42,521 bases of DNA, from positions 1-42,521 of IMG/VR virus record IMGVR_UViG_3300018083_000059; one strand, given 5' to 3'. The notes under the pieces were generated by a model. That model was not told where the DNA came from. It searched no databases and was given only the letters and a program-made list of their open reading frames with translations. Position 1 is the first letter of the stretch. Every line of letters begins with the position of its first letter. The stretch is from a virus. Of this stretch, positions 13,638 to 20,472 are shown in pieces. A program made the position numbers and the translations under genes.

Positions 13638-16196
13638 ATGGCATCATCGCAGCGTGAGGGCATCACCATCAGCACACGCGACCTCGACCTGATCGCCCGT
13701 GTCGTAGCGTCGGAAACCCCGAACAGTTGGCTCCGCAGCGAATCCGGCGCGAACGGCGTCAAGGGCGTCATTGACGTCATTCTCAACCGGGCAAGCTCGG
13801 GCAGCTATCCGAGCAGCATCGAAGACGTGCTGAACCAAAAGGGGCAGTTCTCGGCGGTTTCAGGCAACAAGAACGCAGCTGGTTCGGCCGATCGGTTGGG
13901 ACGGCCATCAAAAGAGATGTCCGAGTTCGTTACTGGCTATATCCGCGATCGCGCCAATGGGGCGCCTTCGGCGGTTGGCGGTGCGCTCAACTTTGCTAAT
14001 CCGCACTATTCAGATCCTCGCAACCTCTCCTGGATCAACGCCATGGAGCGGAATGGTGGCCAAACTTTCGGCCGCGGCGGCAAGGATATTCACGTTTACG
14101 GCACAGCACCGGGCGCGCGGTCGCATGAGGCGACCAATATCCGCCTGACGCGGGATATCTCATCGCCTGCTGCTGGTTCCGCCCGTGGGAGAACCCATGT
14201 CGCCGACCGCCTGCCCGACAACTGGCCGCGTGGCGGGCCGACCGCTTCCGGCTTCAATGCCGGGATCTTCGACCGTGTCGCCGATCGCGTCCTCCGCTTC
14301 GGCAACCCGCAGGCGCTTGGCGCGCCGCCGCAGCGCAACGTTGTGCAGGAAATGTTCGACAAAATTGGTCGTGGCCGGGCGGGCGTGCGCAGCGATGCCG
14401 TGCCGCCGAGCACGCAGCAGCGCCAGGCGACCTTGCGGCAGGGCATGGAAGGCCCGCAGGTCAAGGCGCTGCAGCAGGATCTGATCCGCGCCGGCCTCCT
14501 TGAGCTGAAAGACGCGGACGGCAAGTTCGGGCCGCAGACGGCGGCGGCGGTGCGGCAACTGGAGCAGATCAAAGGCTTGCCGACGCAGGATCGCGGCATT
14601 GCCGGCCGGGAGGTCTTTGGGGCGCTTCGTGGCGGGCAGATGCCGCCGCCGGTGCCGCAGGCCACACCGACGCAGAGAACGACGGGCACTGCGCCAATCA
14701 CGCCGGTCGAGCGCGGTCCCGCGCTTAATCCCCCAGCCATCCCACCGCCATCCCCCACCCCGGCCACCACATCTGGATGGACCCCGCCAGCTTCTCTCTC
14801 CAAGGAACGGCCGGCTGGGACGGGCACGATGGCTCCTGGCGCCACCACGTGGCTGCATGGCGGGCCGAGTGCATCTACCGCTGCTCCCCCACCCATCCCA
14901 CCGCCATCCCCCTCTCCATCCCCCACCAACTGGTCGTTGCCGGCTTACGGCGGGGCTGTTCCAGGCCCAGGGCCTCATCTCCCGAACACGGACGTCCAGC
15001 GAACCATCGCGGCCGAGATTGCGGCTACGCCGGCAGCAGGCCAGCGCGTCGCCAATCAAGCGCGCGATTTCGGGCCGCTCGGCGCTCAGTCGCTTACCCC
15101 CCAGTCGTTCCCGGATGCTTTTGCACCGGCAGCACGGACCTCAGGTATCCAGACTGGCCCGACGGCAAATCCGGCGCAGTTCCAGCCGCCGACATTGCCG
15201 CCGCAGTTCGGCCCCAACCCGCCACCGGGAGCCGCACAAGCACTTGGTGCCCAGCCAGCAACGCCGCCCATGTCGCCAGGGAGCGGCATGCTGGCATCGC
15301 AGGAGGCACGCCCGTCGATCAGGCCGGATGCCCTGGGGCCGCCGGGAGGCGCCGCCAACTATGCGCCGCGCGACATCGGCGCGCTGGCCCGCGGCATCGA
15401 GTCTCCGATGTTCAACCCGCCGCAGTCGACGCCGCAATTCCCTGCTACCGGATGGGCAGGCGCCCCAGGTGCGCCACCTTCGCCATCGCCGCAGCTCGGC
15501 CCGACGATCGCCGCCGCCAATGCTGCCTTTGGCGGGGGCATCCCGACGATCGGGGCGGCAACGGCGGCGCCTCCTGCGACGACACAGCGCGAAGTCCCGG
15601 ACGAGCAGCGGAAGGCCGAGCTGCAGAAGGCGATAACGGAGCGCATTGAGGATATGCGGACCGGAGCTGCCCCGCCCACTGCCGTCATGGCTGCGGCTGC
15701 GGGACAACCGCCCCCTGATTTCGGTCTTGGGCAGACAACCATCGGCACAGCCAACGACCCGTTCCCCAATTTCCCGACGCCGGGCCTGACATCTGTCGGC
15801 GATCGCGCCAATGAGCCGCGTCCCAGCCAATACGAGGCGCCGACCGGGGCTTTCCTCGGGGACATCCCCACCGTCGCGCCACCGCCCATGGAAAGCATCG
15901 TCCAGCCGCAGATCGACCAGGGCGGCCAGGGCCTCCTTGGCGGGCAGGGCCTCGGCGACCAGACGCCGGTCGAAGGGCCGGCTGCCGGCCGGTCTGACGC
16001 CCAAGGCGTCCTCGACGCCATCAGCCAGGCTGATTTCACCGGCGTCAACCAGCAGGATCAGCAGCCGGGCGGCGACCAGGGCGCAACAGCATCGGCGGCG
16101 AGCGGCGACAACCCATTCACATCCGCCCAGACTGCCGAGCAGCAGGGCATCCTGGCCATGCTCGAAGAGATGTTCGGCTCAGGGAGCACCAGATGA
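13638..16196 (+). CDS. Internal virion protein with N-terminal cell-wall hydrolase (SleB-like) and peptidoglycan-binding domains plus a long Pro-rich region
   Basis: DLDLIARVVASE...VIDVILNR...QFSAV is Hydrolase_2-like. GPQVKALQQDLIRAGL...DGKFGPQTAAAVRQLE is PG_binding_1-like. About 470 aa of P/A/G/Q low complexity follow. Confidence 0.75.
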   Translation: MASSQREGITISTRDLDLIARVVASETPNSWLRSESGANGVKGVIDVILNRASSGSYPSSIEDVLNQKGQFSAVSGNKNAAGSADRLGRPSKEMSEFVTGYIRDRANGAPSAVGGALNFANPHYSDPRNLSWINAMERNGGQTFGRGGKDIHVYGTAPGARSHEATNIRLTRDISSPAAGSARGRTHVADRLPDNWPRGGPTASGFNAGIFDRVADRVLRFGNPQALGAPPQRNVVQEMFDKIGRGRAGVRSDAVPPSTQQRQATLRQGMEGPQVKALQQDLIRAGLLELKDADGKFGPQTAAAVRQLEQIKGLPTQDRGIAGREVFGALRGGQMPPPVPQATPTQRTTGTAPITPVERGPALNPPAIPPPSPTPATTSGWTPPASLSKERPAGTGTMAPGATTWLHGGPSASTAAPPPIPPPSPSPSPTNWSLPAYGGAVPGPGPHLPNTDVQRTIAAEIAATPAAGQRVANQARDFGPLGAQSLTPQSFPDAFAPAARTSGIQTGPTANPAQFQPPTLPPQFGPNPPPGAAQALGAQPATPPMSPGSGMLASQEARPSIRPDALGPPGGAANYAPRDIGALARGIESPMFNPPQSTPQFPATGWAGAPGAPPSPSPQLGPTIAAANAAFGGGIPTIGAATAAPPATTQREVPDEQRKAELQKAITERIEDMRTGAAPPTAVMAAAAGQPPPDFGLGQTTIGTANDPFPNFPTPGLTSVGDRANEPRPSQYEAPTGAFLGDIPTVAPPPMESIVQPQIDQGGQGLLGGQGLGDQTPVEGPAAGRSDAQGVLDAISQADFTGVNQQDQQPGGDQGATASAASGDNPFTSAQTAEQQGILAMLEEMFGSGSTR

Positions 16197-17914
16197 CCAA
16201 TCCGCTTTCCTGGTCGACGACCGCCGCCTCGAACACCAGCGTCGCCGGCGTCTCGATCGCCGAGGGCTGGGCGCCGGCCTCGGTCAACAATGCCCTGCGC
16301 GGCATGATGGCCGACCTCAGCAAGTTCATCAAAGACAGCAGCGGCGACCTTGTCACCTCGGGCGCCGGCACCAACTTCTATTCGATCAATTCGAACATGG
16401 ACCTGACAGCCTACGCCAAGCCGATCCTGCTGCTGGCGCGGGCGCACCAGACCAACACAGGGCCGTCTTCGATGTCGGTCGACGGCCTCGGCACCCGATC
16501 GATCAAGCGCACCAGCGGCGCCGTCCTGACTGCTGGCGATATCGTCCTCGGCGGGATGTATTTCTTCACTTACGACCCCGTTACCGACGTCTTCTTTCTC
16601 ATGAACCCGACCGGCGCCGGGGTCATCACCTCGACGATCCCGGTCGCCTTTGGCGGCACCGGAATCACCAGTTACGCCATCGGCGACATGATCTACGCCT
16701 CGGCGGCGACGGTGCTGTCGCATGTGCCGGCGGCGGCGACAGGTAACGTCCTGCTCTCGGGAACGGCGCCATCGTGGAACAAGGTGACGCTCACCGGCCA
16801 TGTGTCGGGCGTCCTGCCGATCGCCAATGGCGGCACTGCCGCCGCCGACGTGACTAACGCCCGGATCAATCTCGGCCTCGTCATCGGCACCAACGTCCAG
16901 GCGTTCGACGCGACGCTCAGCGGCCTCGCCGGTCTGACCACCGCATCTGACCAGGCGATCTATTCCACCGGCGTCAACACTTTCGCCATGACCGGGTTCA
17001 CCAGCTATGGGCGGTCGCTGGTCGACGACGTCGATGCCGCGGCGGCGAGGACGACGCTCGGCCTGGGGACCATGGCGACGCAGGCGGCGAGCGCGGTGGC
17101 GATCACCGGCGGCAGCATCGACGTCCCGACGCTCAAGGTGAGCGGCGTTGCCGTGCCGACCCAGAGCACTGCCAACATCTGGACAGCGGCGCAGACCGTC
17201 ACGCTGGCGACCGCGGCAGCAGTGCCGCTGACGCTGACCTCAACCGAAGCGGGAGCGGCAGTCGGCCCGACCCTGAACCTCTTCCGGGATTCCGTGTCGC
17301 CCTTCACCGCCGACGTCGCCGGTGCGGTGACGTTCACGGCCCGGAACAGCGCCAACGCGGTCGTCGGCTATGGCAGCATCCAGTCGGTTCTGGCCGATGT
17401 GACCGGCGGCTCGGAGGATGGCCGCATCAATGTCGCCACAGTCATCAACGGCTCGTCCGTCATCGTGGCGCAGTTCGGGCCCGGCCTGGTGGTCGGCGCA
17501 CCGACCGGCGGCGACAAGGGTGTCGGCACGATCAACGCGACCGGCGTTTACGACGACAACACGCTGTTGACCGGCTACGTGCTGGAGGCCGCCCTCGACG
17601 GCGCCATCGACAAGCCGAAATGGGACAAGATTGGCATCCGCGGCGTCCATGAGCCGATGCGGCGCTTTTCCGCCATGGTGGAGACAGGGTCTCGCAATCC
17701 GCTAACCATCGACGGATTCAGCGATTTCTGGAAAACCTATCGGCATCTCCCATCTTTGCCTGATGAGGAGCAGCCGTCGCTGCTTGAGCAGCCGTCGACC
17801 GGGCAATGGATTCAGATGCTGGTCGAAACGGTGGAGCTGCTGGCGGTGCATGTCGATGGGCTGAACGAGCGGCTGAACAGGTTGGAGCCGCAGTCGGTAT
17901 ATGGAGGGAAGTAA
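16193..17914 (+). CDS. Tail fiber protein
   Basis: N-terminus NPLSWSTTAASNTSVAGVSIAEGWAPASVNNALRGMMADL. Repeated fiber motifs VAFGGTGITSYA and PIANGGTAAADVTNARINLGL. Confidence 0.75.
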   Translation: MTNPLSWSTTAASNTSVAGVSIAEGWAPASVNNALRGMMADLSKFIKDSSGDLVTSGAGTNFYSINSNMDLTAYAKPILLLARAHQTNTGPSSMSVDGLGTRSIKRTSGAVLTAGDIVLGGMYFFTYDPVTDVFFLMNPTGAGVITSTIPVAFGGTGITSYAIGDMIYASAATVLSHVPAAATGNVLLSGTAPSWNKVTLTGHVSGVLPIANGGTAAADVTNARINLGLVIGTNVQAFDATLSGLAGLTTASDQAIYSTGVNTFAMTGFTSYGRSLVDDVDAAAARTTLGLGTMATQAASAVAITGGSIDVPTLKVSGVAVPTQSTANIWTAAQTVTLATAAAVPLTLTSTEAGAAVGPTLNLFRDSVSPFTADVAGAVTFTARNSANAVVGYGSIQSVLADVTGGSEDGRINVATVINGSSVIVAQFGPGLVVGAPTGGDKGVGTINATGVYDDNTLLTGYVLEAALDGAIDKPKWDKIGIRGVHEPMRRFSAMVETGSRNPLTIDGFSDFWKTYRHLPSLPDEEQPSLLEQPSTGQWIQMLVETVELLAVHVDGLNERLNRLEPQSVYGGK

Positions 17915-18255
17915 TGGATCAGGCTGCGATCATCCGCGAGCTCGAGGAGCAGCGAAACATGATGTCATCGCGGGCGGCGCAGTTCGCCGGCATCGCGGCG
18001 TCGCTGGGCGCCGAGATCGAGGTGCTCAAGGGCAAGTTGAAAAAGGCCGAGGCGGATGTCGACCGCGACCTGGACGGGATCGTGTCGGCCTATGAGGCCA
18101 AGGTTGCCGAGATGCGCGAGCGGATCACCGAGAACGAGGTCGACGCCGCCAACGCCGAGTTCGTTGCCGGCGGCGGGGTGATGAACAACTGGTCCGAGGG
18201 CGCTCCACGGGAGCCCGAGGCGATCGTCGAGGGGGCGGCGTTCAAGGCGGCGTGA
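17914..18255 (+). CDS. Hypothetical coiled-coil protein (last late gene)
   Basis: TAATG coupling to the fiber gene; 113 aa, helical and charged. Its 3' end overlaps the convergent MTase gene by 14 nt. Confidence 0.5.
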   Translation: MDQAAIIRELEEQRNMMSSRAAQFAGIAASLGAEIEVLKGKLKKAEADVDRDLDGIVSAYEAKVAEMRERITENEVDAANAEFVAGGGVMNNWSEGAPREPEAIVEGAAFKAA

Positions 18256-19123
18256 TGCTCATGGCGCATTGGATGAAGGCGGCCGCCTGCTCGGCATTGA
18301 TTGCATTGCCATAACCGCGCAGTCGTCCCACTCGGGCGGGAGCCCCATGAGCCAGCGGGAATGTGCCGGGTTCAACTGGCCGAGCTTTGCCGTCTTGGCA
18401 GGAGATCCAGTCGGCGTCGGACCAGAAGCTAGCCACACCTGCCGACCGAGGAGGCCATTGACCGGCACCGTTCCCACCGACCCGCCGTCCTTGTGGTCGC
18501 GGGTTGTCGGCGTCGCCCAGGAGGCCATCTTTGCCGCTCCCGGCAGCTTCAGCGCCGGCTTGTCGTGGTCGCCGCGGCTGTAGCTGTAATCGCTCGCCTT
18601 GGCGTTGTTCACCACCGGCATCGGCCATCCAGTAAAGCCGCTGCCGGATATGCGGCGCGCCAACGCTGCAAGCCGGGAAAGACACCGCCCCGAAGGCGTA
18701 ACCCAGGGCTTCCAGGTCAGTCGAAACAAGGTCGATCCACGGCCCCGCAACGTCTCCCGCAACCTGCTCTCCAAGCACCGTTGGAGGGCGGCACTCCGAG
18801 ATGAGCCAATGCCAGGCAGGCCACAGGTGCCGCTCGTCATCAAACCCTGCTCCGCGGCCTGCCGCGCTGAAAGGCTGGCATGGGCAGGAACCGGTCCACA
18901 CGGGCTGGTCGTCGGGCCATCCAGCTTGTCGAAGAGCGTAGGCCCAGACGCCGATGCCGGCGAAGAAATGACATTGGCTATAGCCGGCGAGGTCGGCTGG
19001 GCTGATATCGCGGATGTCGCGCTGGTCCACGTCTCCGGGTGGAAGATATCCGGCTGCAACGAGGTTGCGGAGCCACGCCGCAGCGAATGGATCAATCTCG
19101 TTGTAGAGGACTCGGCCATTCAT
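18242..19123 (-). CDS. DNA (cytosine-5)-methyltransferase (frame A; see finding on frame switching)
   Basis: FFAGIGVW (motif I), [11 protein letters not shown] (IV), LGEQV (VI), [11 protein letters not shown] (VIII), RLRGYGNAI (X). ATG at 19123 preceded by GGGAG. Confidence 0.8.
18259..19119 (-). other. Alternative-frame (+1) ORF completely nested in the C5-MTase gene
   Basis: 286 codons from an ATG 4 nt downstream of the frame-A ATG. Its C-terminal third reads [37 protein letters not shown] and has higher GC3 than frame A. Confidence 0.4.
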
Positions 19124-19324
19124 GCTCCCGGAACGTCCAATGAACGCTGTGTCAAATTTGGGCTCGTCGTATCCTGCTTGTTCTTGATTCCTGCCGTTTC
19201 GACCTGCATGGACATGCAAGCAAAACGAGGCAGGACTTGAGATTTTCCGCGGGTTTCCCTACACCAACCGATGGCCGCCTCTGGCCCTTGCGGAGGAGTT
19301 TACGTAATATGGTAAGCTGTTGTC
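19124..19324. other. Non-coding region next to the integrase 3' end; candidate attP-containing region
   Basis: AT-richer than its surroundings. Imperfect hairpin CTCATA(TA)CGC-tttct-GCGTATGAG overlaps the int stop. The core cannot be defined without the host attB. Confidence 0.3.
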
Positions 19325-20314
19325 TCATATACGCTTTCTGCGTATGAGATATGGTTTTGTGTCGGATTTTGTGCCACTGATCCTGTCCGCTAGCGTGTCA
19401 TCCTCGGCGGCGTGCCCGTAGGTCGCGAAGACGTGCGCCGGGCTCTTCCACCCGCCCAGTTTCGCCACCGTCACCACATCGACGCCGGCCTGCAGCATCG
19501 CCGTAGCGAAACCATGCCGGCAGGCATGGAATGACAGCGGCTTGATCTCTGCCCGTGTGATCGCTGCATCCCACCTCGGCAAGGCGTTCTCTCGTGAGAG
19601 ATAACCGAACACCCGGCCGTTCGGCTGCTGGTCGATGTTGGCTATTGCGGCGACAAGGACGGGCGGCAGGTGGGCTCGGCGCTCGGCGCCTATCTTGGTC
19701 TGCCGGATCAGCGCGCGGGCATTGGGGAGGCTTACATCAGCCCAGCGAAGGCTGGTCGCCTCGGTGATCCGAGCGCCGGTCAGGAACATGAAGCAGGCAA
19801 GGGCGCCGAGATGCGGCGAGGCATGCGCCATGAACGCCTCGATCCAAAGCCAGGTCGCCGGTTCCTTCTCGTGTTTGACGACCGGGAAGCGCCGCATCCG
19901 CACGATGGGCGGGCAGAGGTCGTGGTCGGCAGCGTGGTTGATGATCGCCTGCGTCGGGACCAGGACATGGCGGTTCCGGGTCGCGCCCGAAGCATTGGGA
20001 TAAAGGGTCTTTGCCGATTCCCGGATAGCGCCGGTCGTGATGTCCTTCACGCGGGTGTCGCGCCAATAATCCTCGATCTTGTCGAGGAAGCGGGTCGGCT
20101 TGCCTGCCCTTCGGTAGAGAATGGCGGCTTGGGCGAACGTCAGAACGGCTTCGGGTCCATCGAGACGACTTTGCCATTGCTTCGCCGCGGCTTCGTCGGC
20201 GATGCGGCGCGCGATTGCCTGGTCCTCAGTACGCGTAGAGCCGCGTAGTCGCCGGCCGGCAACGGTGCCTCGGTAGTACCAGACCTCGCCACGCTTGAAG
20301 AGTGTGAGGGACAT
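19325..20314 (-). CDS. int: Tyrosine integrase
   Basis: MSLTLFKRGEVWYYRG N-terminus. TGARITE (Arg), HACRHGFAT (His-x-x-Arg), ATYGH (catalytic Tyr). Confidence 0.9.
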   Translation of the reverse strand: MSLTLFKRGEVWYYRGTVAGRRLRGSTRTEDQAIARRIADEAAAKQWQSRLDGPEAVLTFAQAAILYRRAGKPTRFLDKIEDYWRDTRVKDITTGAIRESAKTLYPNASGATRNRHVLVPTQAIINHAADHDLCPPIVRMRRFPVVKHEKEPATWLWIEAFMAHASPHLGALACFMFLTGARITEATSLRWADVSLPNARALIRQTKIGAERRAHLPPVLVAAIANIDQQPNGRVFGYLSRENALPRWDAAITRAEIKPLSFHACRHGFATAMLQAGVDVVTVAKLGGWKSPAHVFATYGHAAEDDTLADRISGTKSDTKPYLIRRKRI

Positions 20315-20472
20315 GGCTTTGTCGCCTTCAAGAGGGTGCGGACGTCGTCTTCGGTGAGCACCATAGTCTTGCCGATGACGCTGCAGGCGCCAAGGTCGCG
20401 GGCCAACTTGCGCAAAGTCCTTTCGGGGCAACCAAGCTGGGCGGCGACGGCTGCCGGCGTGAGGAATGTCAT
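20140..20472 (-). CDS. Excisionase-like HTH protein with a long 3' extension over the int start
   Basis: LTPAAVAAQLGCPERTLRKLARDLG...VLTEDDVRTLL HTH. The ORF runs 175 nt into the int coding region in another frame. Confidence 0.55.
   Translation of the reverse strand: MTFLTPAAVAAQLGCPERTLRKLARDLGACSVIGKTMVLTEDDVRTLLKATKPCPSHSSSVARSGTTEAPLPAGDYAALRVLRTRQSRAASPTKPRRSNGKVVSMDPKPF

Follow-up and report, generated by a model that had tools for sequence, protein, structure and literature searches.

Within the window, a 42,521-nt stretch of viral DNA (IMG/VR record IMGVR_UViG_3300018083_000059), two long open reading frames (ORFs) occupy almost the same minus-strand nucleotides (Table 1). The longer, in frame A, encodes a C5-methyltransferase (C5-MTase) large-domain subunit, here called alpha, and the shorter, in frame B (+1 relative to A), lies wholly inside it; its predicted product is called beta. 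The two fully overlapping ORFs had been recognized in the initial annotation, and the lengths and ends that it gave proved correct when coordinates and strings were re-read, as did its placement of RLRGYGNAI and the other catalytic motifs in frame A. The methylase locus is an orphan phage gene, and an integrase adjoins it.

Table 1. Features of the nested methyltransferase locus (positions are those of the window).
Feature	Position	Strand	Description
Alpha ORF (frame A)	18242..19123	minus	293 aa + stop; C5-MTase large-domain subunit
Beta ORF (frame B = A+1)	18259..19119	minus	286 codons + stop; nested in alpha
Shared initiation region	19117..19129	minus	SD-like GGGAG 19129-19125, alpha ATG 19123, beta ATG 19119; putative, from sequence reading
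Alpha motif I	18967-18944	minus	FFAGIG; frame A
Alpha motif IV	18889-18857	minus	PCQPFS; frame A
Alpha motif VI	18775-18761	minus	GEQV; frame A
Alpha motif VIII	18661-18629	minus	PHIRQR; frame A
Dual-coding segment 1	18629..18880	minus	alpha motifs IV-VIII over conserved beta N-terminal module
Beta N-terminal module	helix 18792-18748, hairpin 18738-18637	minus	SLSARQA..GLMTSGT
Alpha linker	18428..18628	minus	residues 166-232, G/R/Q/A/P-rich; overlapped by beta W-x-T-P region
Beta W-x-T-P region blocks	18627-18616, 18552-18523, 18519-18481	minus	WPMP at 18627-18616
Dual-coding segment 2	18316..18427	minus	alpha conserved hairpin stretch over beta motif IX-like block (18381-18316)
Alpha motif X + C-terminal helix	18260..18325	minus	beta tail unconstrained here

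Alpha matched PF00145 (E 4e-11; 43.3 bits, cut-off 22) and, over its full length, phrog_363 (E 4e-80), and its homologs, annotated as DNA cytosine methyltransferase, number at least 8000. The C5-MTase motifs I (FxGxG), IV (PCQ), VI (ENV-like) and VIII (QxRxR-like) are all present in alpha and in order. A motif scan of 86 loci found these four in frame 0 wherever they were detected, and each motif detected kept the same frame and rigid offsets. In the AlphaFold model of alpha, residues 1-170 (pLDDT ~90) and the helix at residues 262-290 that carries motif X (pLDDT 82-95) were confidently predicted; residues 175-232 were disordered (pLDDT <50), and residues 251-260 also fell below 50. Foldseek aligned the model with M.HhaI, M.HaeIII and DNMT2 at probability 1.0 over ~165-200 columns, and with DNMT1 also at probability 1.0, these alignments spanning only about half of the target enzymes. 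No small domain, i.e., a target recognition domain (TRD) plus motif IX, was found in the alpha chain by AlphaFold, codon constraint or Foldseek. The structural modelling shows alpha to have an AdoMet-dependent methyltransferase large-domain fold with a motif X helix only.

The GC content of third codon positions (GC3) had been counted by hand as switching from frame A to frame B and back to A along the locus, and the exact values agree: 0.68 in A and 0.71 in B over the first 160 codons, 0.56 and 0.82 over 18625-18310, and 0.72 and 0.54 over the last 25 codons. Most of the remaining long ORFs in the window have GC3 values of 0.70-0.86. When protein A was held fixed and its synonymous codons were shuffled, frame B of the window (65% GC) stayed open in 17% of shuffles, and when protein B was held fixed the middle of frame A stayed open in 0.3%. 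Taken alone, the window therefore offers dual-frame evidence that is only partly beyond chance, the openness of frame B being non-significant (p 0.17).

Relatives were compared in a set of 164 loci, made up of a first sample of 85 and an alpha-only sample of 79, drawn from phages, IMG/VR and bacterial genomes, ranging from 46 to 68% GC and including E. coli, Vibrio and T4-like phages. Frames A and B were both open in every locus of the first (85/85) and the alpha-only (79/79) sample, compared with 3.5-4.6 stops expected per locus from synonymous shuffles; such dual openness across relatives is far beyond chance. Codon-level analysis showed that purifying selection acts on B between motif IV (18880) and ...EWDDCA (~18316), with 85 codons of this span overlapping motifs IV-VIII of A, and that A is under selection throughout, except in the linker, where its frame is only kept open. 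At the level of sequence, these comparisons demonstrate both open frames and purifying selection in A and in B.

The constraint changes from segment to segment. Upstream of motif IV the synonymous sites of alpha are free, and from +3 onward many are fixed (e.g., Pro CCT in 64/68 loci, Val GTT in 67/67 and Glu GAA in 67/67). Mean synonymous-codon diversity of alpha dropped from 0.56 upstream to 0.27 in segment 1 (Mann-Whitney p 3e-12), where 20 of 67 alpha codons were fixed versus none of 66 upstream. Across the linker, where the amino-acid divergence of alpha reached 0.83, beta W, T, P, D and L residues are conserved with free third positions, and the alpha frame is open in every locus (164/164) compared with ~0.7% of shuffles. 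Nearly every site in segment 2 is fixed in both frames; the third bases of beta Ser TCT and Thr ACT codons are fixed, giving Trp codons in alpha, and in three loci beta retained SRWLMG by means of AGC/AGA codons with alpha altered. Past RWLMG+42, the wobble positions of alpha are free again. Constraint thus lies on beta only in the middle, on both proteins around motif IX, and on alpha only after motif IX. Assignment of the middle to frame B had been based on composition, and it holds at the codon level: the phase check proposed for each part of the gene found that the middle varies at third positions of B, not of A, and that the amino acids of A are unconstrained there.

These results bear on whether frame B is simply an untranslated shadow ORF, open through high GC and conserved only via A. 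The 17% of shuffles that leave B open in the window at 65% GC would suit such a shadow, and some of the conservation of B over motifs IV-VIII must indeed be A's. However, B is open even in loci of 46-56% GC, whereas the +1 frame of single-chain relatives at equal GC contains 6-10 stops; B residues of the middle region are conserved with third-position wobble where A is unconstrained; and synonymous sites of A are fixed in a manner that preserves B residues. A shadow ORF is accordingly extremely unlikely. We give almost no credence to a further possibility, that the specificity domain was scrambled in this genome, either by two compensating indels as the gene decayed or by errors of assembly. 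The layout does resemble a +1/-1 pair relative to single-chain methyltransferases, and a relative in phage PMG1 has an additional frame break in alpha, but 164 independent loci, spread over many taxa and sequenced in many projects, have an identical layout, and purifying selection acts on both frames. The arrangement may have originated long ago through a pair of frame changes; the present gene is not broken.

Homologs of beta numbered 2420 in a first search and formed 27,125 clusters at 50% identity, none of which carried a Pfam domain. The conserved part of beta comprises ~190-250 aa, with W-x-T-P..D repeats that vary in number from 0 to 6 across the family. Searches of frame B against Pfam, NCBIfam and PDB sequences gave no match, nor did a mosaic profile of motifs IX-X against the same three collections. 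AlphaFold modelled beta with an overall pLDDT of 64, its N-terminal helix and hairpin reaching 80-90, and Foldseek of this model against the PDB returned only noise because model confidence was low. Residues 237-265 of beta did align with the L.P.F.EWLMG.P.GW block of single-chain methyltransferases (hhalign E 4e-5, 29 columns, prob 70%). Since Pfam and PDB sequence searches miss beta, this alignment gives moderate support to homology between the beta C-terminus and motif IX of those enzymes.

In most relatives beta appears to have its own start. An ATG occupies the usual internal position in 65/68 loci versus 48 expected, and the Asp codon at this site is GAT in 55/65 loci versus 39% elsewhere (p 2e-12), codon usage from which we conclude that the internal ATG is under selection in the relatives. 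It is absent from the window and from one other locus (L070), and the twin ATGs of the window, which fall within ATGAATGG, recur in L070. In this phage translation of beta probably begins at the second ATG of the pair, 4 nt downstream of the alpha start, and both ATGs would act as start codons. The internal ATG at 18621, previously put forward as a possible frame-B start, lies too far downstream: constraint on B already begins at 18880, within motif IV.

Single-chain enzymes with all motifs in one frame, which the initial annotation had suggested looking for, were found in actinophages: Gordonia phage Rabbitrun gp78 and Mycobacterium phages KyMonks1A gp92 and Graduation gp47. These have PCQPFS, DERHLWP, ENV/EQV and GAPHxRxR, followed by L.P.F.EWLMG.P.GW and GN.V, an order collinear with a mosaic of A (motifs I-VIII), B (middle and motif IX) and A (motif X), as had been supposed. 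The profiles of alpha (hhalign E 8e-18) and beta map to successive parts of the single-chain proteins. Unlike the locus described here, the actinophage enzymes lack both the W-x-T-P repeats and the beta N-terminal module, and their spacer between motifs IX and X is 15 aa versus ~6 in the mosaic. Single-piece tblastn matches of the mosaic in phage genomes (40-48% identity) were left out of the single-frame homologs: E. coli phage K1ind1, the one such locus read in all three frames, has the dual layout, so its single piece represents an alignment in frame A that spans the linker.

Collinearity with the single-chain actinophage enzymes is what would be expected if programmed recoding, with a +1 shift after ...RLYW (~18629) and a -1 shift after ...EWDD (~18320), produced one A-B-A methylase chain, and the rigid spacing, in all loci, from motif VIII to the first W-P-x-P and from motif IX to motif X is also in keeping with it. 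However, constraint on beta already covers the 85 codons before the +1 site, a stretch in which motifs IV-VIII of alpha are also needed; the alpha stretch FW.DADW..C.DGK is selected within the part supposedly read in frame B; and the alpha linker, which recoding would never read, is open in 164/164 loci. Neither +246..+262 nor RWLMG+27..+42 contains a conserved shift site (slippery heptamer, stop or rare codon); no locus closes either frame, the zero frame included, downstream of the junctions; and a beta ATG is conserved. DNA methylases are likewise absent from the cases in those parts of a comprehensive recoding review that were available (PMC5009743). Recoding is therefore very unlikely. 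Of the three explanations offered in the initial annotation, a separately translated frame-B product survives, and compensating indels (with assembly error) and recoding are contradicted because the layout is universal, both frames are selected in the same nucleotides, and the A linker is kept open.

A precedent for a separately translated beta, one that the initial annotation did not take up, exists in M.EcoHK31I, which belongs to a restriction-modification (R-M) system of E. coli (target YGGCCR) and has a beta polypeptide of 176 aa; the beta described here is longer and, in contrast to an R-M gene, its locus is an orphan beside an integrase. The M.EcoHK31I beta gene sits wholly within that of alpha in a different frame, and beta holds motif IX; both polypeptides are required for activity (PMC2836561), and the beta N-terminus mediates association with alpha (PMC2836561; PMC3404938). 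[quoted passage not shown] It differs in that the literature places the TRD of M.EcoHK31I in alpha, whereas here the TRD seems to be in beta: alpha between motifs VIII and X is a disordered linker free of constraint, and beta contains the conserved W-x-T-P repeats. M.AquI, another C5-MTase that naturally consists of two subunits, is divided inside its variable region (PMC3404938). In that enzyme the split is sequential and the small subunit has motifs IX and X, whereas here beta is nested and motif X is back in alpha.

It could also be that beta is a true overlapping gene of unrelated function, e.g., a regulator or an anti-defence protein, and that alpha alone is the enzyme. Beta has no Pfam, NCBIfam or PDB family match, its N-terminal half is without a counterpart in single-chain methyltransferases, and its GenBank label is 'Mte8-like' or hypothetical. 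On the other side, the beta C-terminus matches motif IX of single-chain relatives; alpha lacks a folded small domain or a motif IX of its own (residues 251-260 are modelled at low confidence and the linker is unconstrained); the alpha and beta ORFs occur together in 164/164 loci; and M.EcoHK31I sets a precedent. We consider an unrelated beta unlikely.

The reading that we hold with good confidence is a two-polypeptide C5-MTase, with beta nested out of frame inside alpha. One stretch of DNA would be read in two frames to give two polypeptides. Alpha would provide the catalytic large domain with motifs I-VIII, and a linker free of sequence constraint, maintained solely as an open frame, would tie this domain to a short conserved hairpin and to the helix of motif X. 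Beta would be initiated independently, in most relatives at the conserved internal ATG; its N-terminal helix-hairpin module probably docks on alpha, its W-x-T-P..D repeats probably recognize the target, and it would supply the motif IX missing from alpha. The two would assemble into an active enzyme, as demonstrated experimentally for M.EcoHK31I, predicted to methylate phage or host DNA like orphan phage methylases. Translation of beta has indirect support only, in the purifying selection on it, the selected ATG and the twin start of the window; that translation, its start site, the association of beta with alpha, the partner that recognizes the target and the activity of the enzyme are inferred. 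More tentatively, at a little less than an even chance, beta may be the entire small domain, with repeat-based target recognition, motif IX and a docking module overprinted on alpha motifs IV-VIII, the alpha region from VIII to X being a mere tether for motif X. In that event, specificity could evolve by gain or loss of repeats in beta, with alpha passively following, and the pair would be among the largest and most tightly constrained same-strand nested pairs known in bacteria and phages.

The same family, with the same nested layout, includes E. coli phage K1ind1 ORF29/ORF28, BcepC6B gp33 and epsilon15 gp p22. In K1ind1 both ORFs are annotated, one as 'putative C-specific methylase' and the other as 'putative Mte8-like protein'; the GenBank records of the three phages assign beta no function. 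Our literature searches found nothing informative on 'Mte8', no prior description of a nested gene in phage C5-methylases, and no paper linking the K1ind1, BcepC6B and epsilon15 homologs to the alpha/beta architecture. As anticipated in the initial annotation, gene callers split the locus into two families, phrog_363 for A versus phrog_1008 and phrog_31772 for B, and the JGI annotation of this very sequence missed alpha entirely. Beta clusters, where a label was seen, had no name or 'hypothetical protein', and beta is sometimes dropped altogether.

The alpha/beta architecture itself is already known; here it is very widespread and poorly annotated. The nested design is not confined to one E. 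coli R-M system; thousands of phage and prophage C5-methylases follow it as a rule. A methylase that seems frameshifted is probably a functional design, one with experimental precedent. Neither Pfam nor NCBIfam has a model for beta, and automated gene calling routinely goes wrong on the family; cloned alpha-only constructs would probably be inactive, and prediction of specificity from alpha would inspect a spacer. The family also forms a clean natural dataset of two proteins on shared nucleotides.

The window is a temperate phage, with genes for terminase, portal, primase and tail fibre. All of the methyltransferase motif strings quoted in the initial annotation were found, each in the frame stated, and exact third-position GC (GC3) values agreed with its hand counts. 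GC3 in frames A (alpha) and B (beta) was 0.68 and 0.71 over the first 160 codons, 0.56 and 0.82 over 18625-18310, and 0.72 and 0.54 over the last 25 codons, with most of the window's other long ORFs at 0.70-0.86. Frame A matched PF00145, while no family was matched by frame B in Pfam or NCBIfam. At ~14100-16200, within and beside an 867-aa plus-strand ORF, each strand carries long open ORFs, several in all, and their codon-position-2 GC is unusually high (0.61-0.73); this may be a Gly/Ala-rich fibre region.

Coordinates of the methylase ORFs and of adjoining or overlapping features in the window
Feature	Position	Strand	Remarks
ORF A (alpha)	ATG 19123, stop 18242	minus	293 codons, read from sequence
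ORF B (beta)	ATG 19119, stop 18259	minus, +1 frame relative to A	286 codons, read from sequence
Integrase	19325-20431		Adjoins methylase locus
JGI antisense ORF	18599..19240	plus	211 aa; crosses methylase gene
JGI frame-B fragment	18621..18259	minus	120 aa (MPVVNN...)
Convergent ORF	17806..18255	plus	149 aa; 14-nt overlap with alpha 3' end; downstream of tail-fibre gene
Tail-fibre gene	16193..17914		

The same layout recurs in relatives. GenBank phage homologs (BcepC6B gp33, Erwinia Eho59 gp69, epsilon15, KpV2811 and Vibrio Baybae) are annotated in frame A throughout, and their C-terminus in that frame, FW.DADW..C.DGK.RPVEPG.FPL..G...RVGRLR.YGNAI, matches the window. More than 250 codons are open in their +1 frame as well, reading GSTLYKLTWK..TP.G....LRAS..RTS...GWPTP, further W-x-T-P repeats and then one more conserved string, as the window's frame B does; frame +2 has stops throughout. 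In a motif scan of 86 loci (80 from IMG/VR and 6 GenBank phages), frame 0 held every instance found of motifs I, IV, VIII and C.DGK, frame +1 held those of LTWK, W-x-T-P and LNP..RWLMG, and the offsets were rigid. The overlap was open in both frames at all 85 usable loci, the window included. Beta was likewise open in 79 of 79 loci (51-66% GC) from bacterial genome contigs chosen by alpha alone, and the dual-frame layout held in a T4-like Krischvirus gene of 45.6% GC. An indel or assembly error is scarcely conceivable beside these counts. In Klebsiella virus KpV2811, beta runs on into the next gene, open for 442 nt beyond the end of alpha, and the part of alpha that separates the motif IX shadow from motif X contains an insertion. 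In Pseudomonas phage PMG1 (HQ711985), a one-base frame change near DERSIEDV interrupts alpha; either this is an error of sequencing, or alpha may be a true pseudogene there.

Chance expectation for open frames was taken from synonymous-codon shuffles in which one protein was held fixed. With alpha fixed, beta acquired a mean of 3.5 stops, and a median of 0.8% of shuffles left it open; with beta fixed, the alpha middle acquired 4.6 stops, and 0.7% left it open. In the window by itself, beta was open in 17% of shuffles and the alpha middle in 0.3%. In three single-chain relatives of 62-64% GC, the +1 frame contains 6-10 stops. That frame B is a shadow ORF is extremely unlikely.

Codon-level analysis of 68 loci, pairwise <90% identical, showed where each frame is constrained. 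Alpha wobble was near saturation ahead of motif IV (synonymous codon diversity 0.5-0.8), whereas many codons of alpha were fixed beginning with the Cys of PCQ: Pro CCT (64/68), Phe TTC (66/68), Ala GCG (44/45), Ala GCA (63/66), Pro CCT (67/67), Val GTT (67/67), Leu CTT (64/64) and Glu GAA (67/67). Mean synonymous diversity fell from 0.56 upstream to 0.27 in the overlap (p 3e-12), and fixed codons rose from 0/66 to 20/67. Protein-level constraint on beta therefore begins at window position 18880; the +1 shift point proposed initially lies 85 codons farther downstream, and the nucleotides of this constrained N-terminal stretch also encode alpha motifs IV-VIII. The proposal that the middle is coded in frame B held up: over 18628-18428, beta residues are conserved with third positions free, and alpha amino acids are unconstrained (divergence 0.83). 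Around motif IX, nearly all sites are fixed in both frames. Here the alpha Trp codons of FW.DADW include the third bases of beta Ser TCT and Thr ACT, which accounts for the invariance of those bases, and beta tolerates Met or Thr where alpha Asp is invariant. In three IMG/VR loci (L023, L041 and L059), beta SRWLMGLP is kept through AGC/AGA codons while alpha TFPLAHG becomes YEQMADG; these loci also have an alpha C-terminal extension of ~500 nt and an early beta stop. Downstream of ...EWD.CAP(T), alpha wobble is free again and the beta tail is unconstrained to its stop. Judged from these codon patterns, the same nucleotides appear to be read in both frames. Since selection acts on both, one mosaic polypeptide cannot explain the pattern; recoding, which would join the frames by shifts, is very unlikely, although the A-B-A mosaic is collinear with the canonical enzyme.

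The putative start of beta is also visible in alpha codons. In most loci, a frame-B ATG lies at -125 nt from motif IV and arises from alpha E-D-V (GAG GAT GTN). The Asp codon is GAT in 55/65 loci, whereas GAT makes up 39% of Asp codons elsewhere (p 2e-12), and the ATG is present in 65/68 loci against 48 expected. Most beta proteins in databases have their first residue at profile position 5 or 11. The spacing of these positions, six codons, equals that of the recurrent ATGs at -143 and -125. The window and one related locus, L070, have no -125 beta ATG, and both carry the twin start ATGAATGG (window 19117-19129; L070 ~iv-243), in which the beta ATG follows the alpha ATG by 4 nt. In the window, one SD-like GGGAG, 1 nt from the alpha ATG and 5 nt from the beta ATG, precedes the twin start; GGGAG likewise precedes it in L070. 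Both ATGs are putative start codons.

Homologs with all motifs in one frame, which the initial annotation had proposed to look for, were found in Gordonia phage Rabbitrun (gp78) and Mycobacterium phages KyMonks1A (gp92) and Graduation (gp47). These single-chain enzymes share PCQPFS, DERHLWP and GAPHxRxR with alpha, and continue in the same frame with ..RL.P.F.EWLMG.P.GWVT, 15 residues and GN.V. By hhalign, alpha profile residues 75-172 aligned to single-chain 94-190 (E 8e-18), and the beta profile (window B 237-265) to 243-271 (E 4e-5, probability 70%). From the latter match we infer that the C-terminal motif IX-like string of beta is probably the enzyme family's motif IX. The nested layout could plausibly have arisen through two ancient frame changes.

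The AlphaFold model of alpha (103-sequence alignment) had pLDDT of ~90 at residues 1-170 and <50 at 175-232 and 251-260, with a weak hairpin at 233-250 and a confident helix at 262-290. Foldseek matched it to M.HhaI, M.HaeIII, DNMT2 and DNMT1 at probability 1.0, over only ~165-200 columns of ~327-residue targets; the matched part is, in this model, the predicted large domain. Beta alone was modelled with low overall confidence (pLDDT 64), but a helix (107-124) and a hairpin (132-154), whose codons overlap alpha motifs VI-VIII, were predicted confidently; a Foldseek search with this model was uninformative. An unrelated function for beta is unlikely.

The initial annotation had foreseen artificial protein families made from one gene, and PHROGs indeed separates phrog_363 (A) from phrog_1008 and phrog_31772 (B). 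A beta profile search returned 27,125 clusters at 50% identity, 8,836 of them at E up to 1e-30, and no Pfam annotation was attached to the 120 beta homologs for which it was listed. In the JGI annotation of the identical sequence (L093), the alpha gene is absent. Beta alone is annotated in phage PMG1 ('similar to Mte8-like'), and both ORFs in E. coli phage K1ind1 ('C-specific methylase' and 'Mte8-like protein').

For one R-M enzyme, a nested alpha/beta architecture was already known in 1995; as a general design of a large phage methylase family, it was not found in the searchable literature. In M.EcoHK31I, beta sits wholly inside alpha in a different frame and bears motif IX; removal of the beta start codons abolished methylation, beta supplied in trans restored it, and N-terminal deletions of beta weakened its association with alpha (PMC2836561; PMC3404938). 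The window locus, compared by architecture, fits this enzyme in each of its points. It differs chiefly in that alpha VIII-X is a spacer in the window and that beta holds the conserved repeat region. The locus is quite probably an alpha/beta C5-methyltransferase with beta nested in alpha. The W-x-T-P repeats of beta number 0 to 6 by locus, the length of the alpha linker following passively, and this variation may be tied to target specificity.
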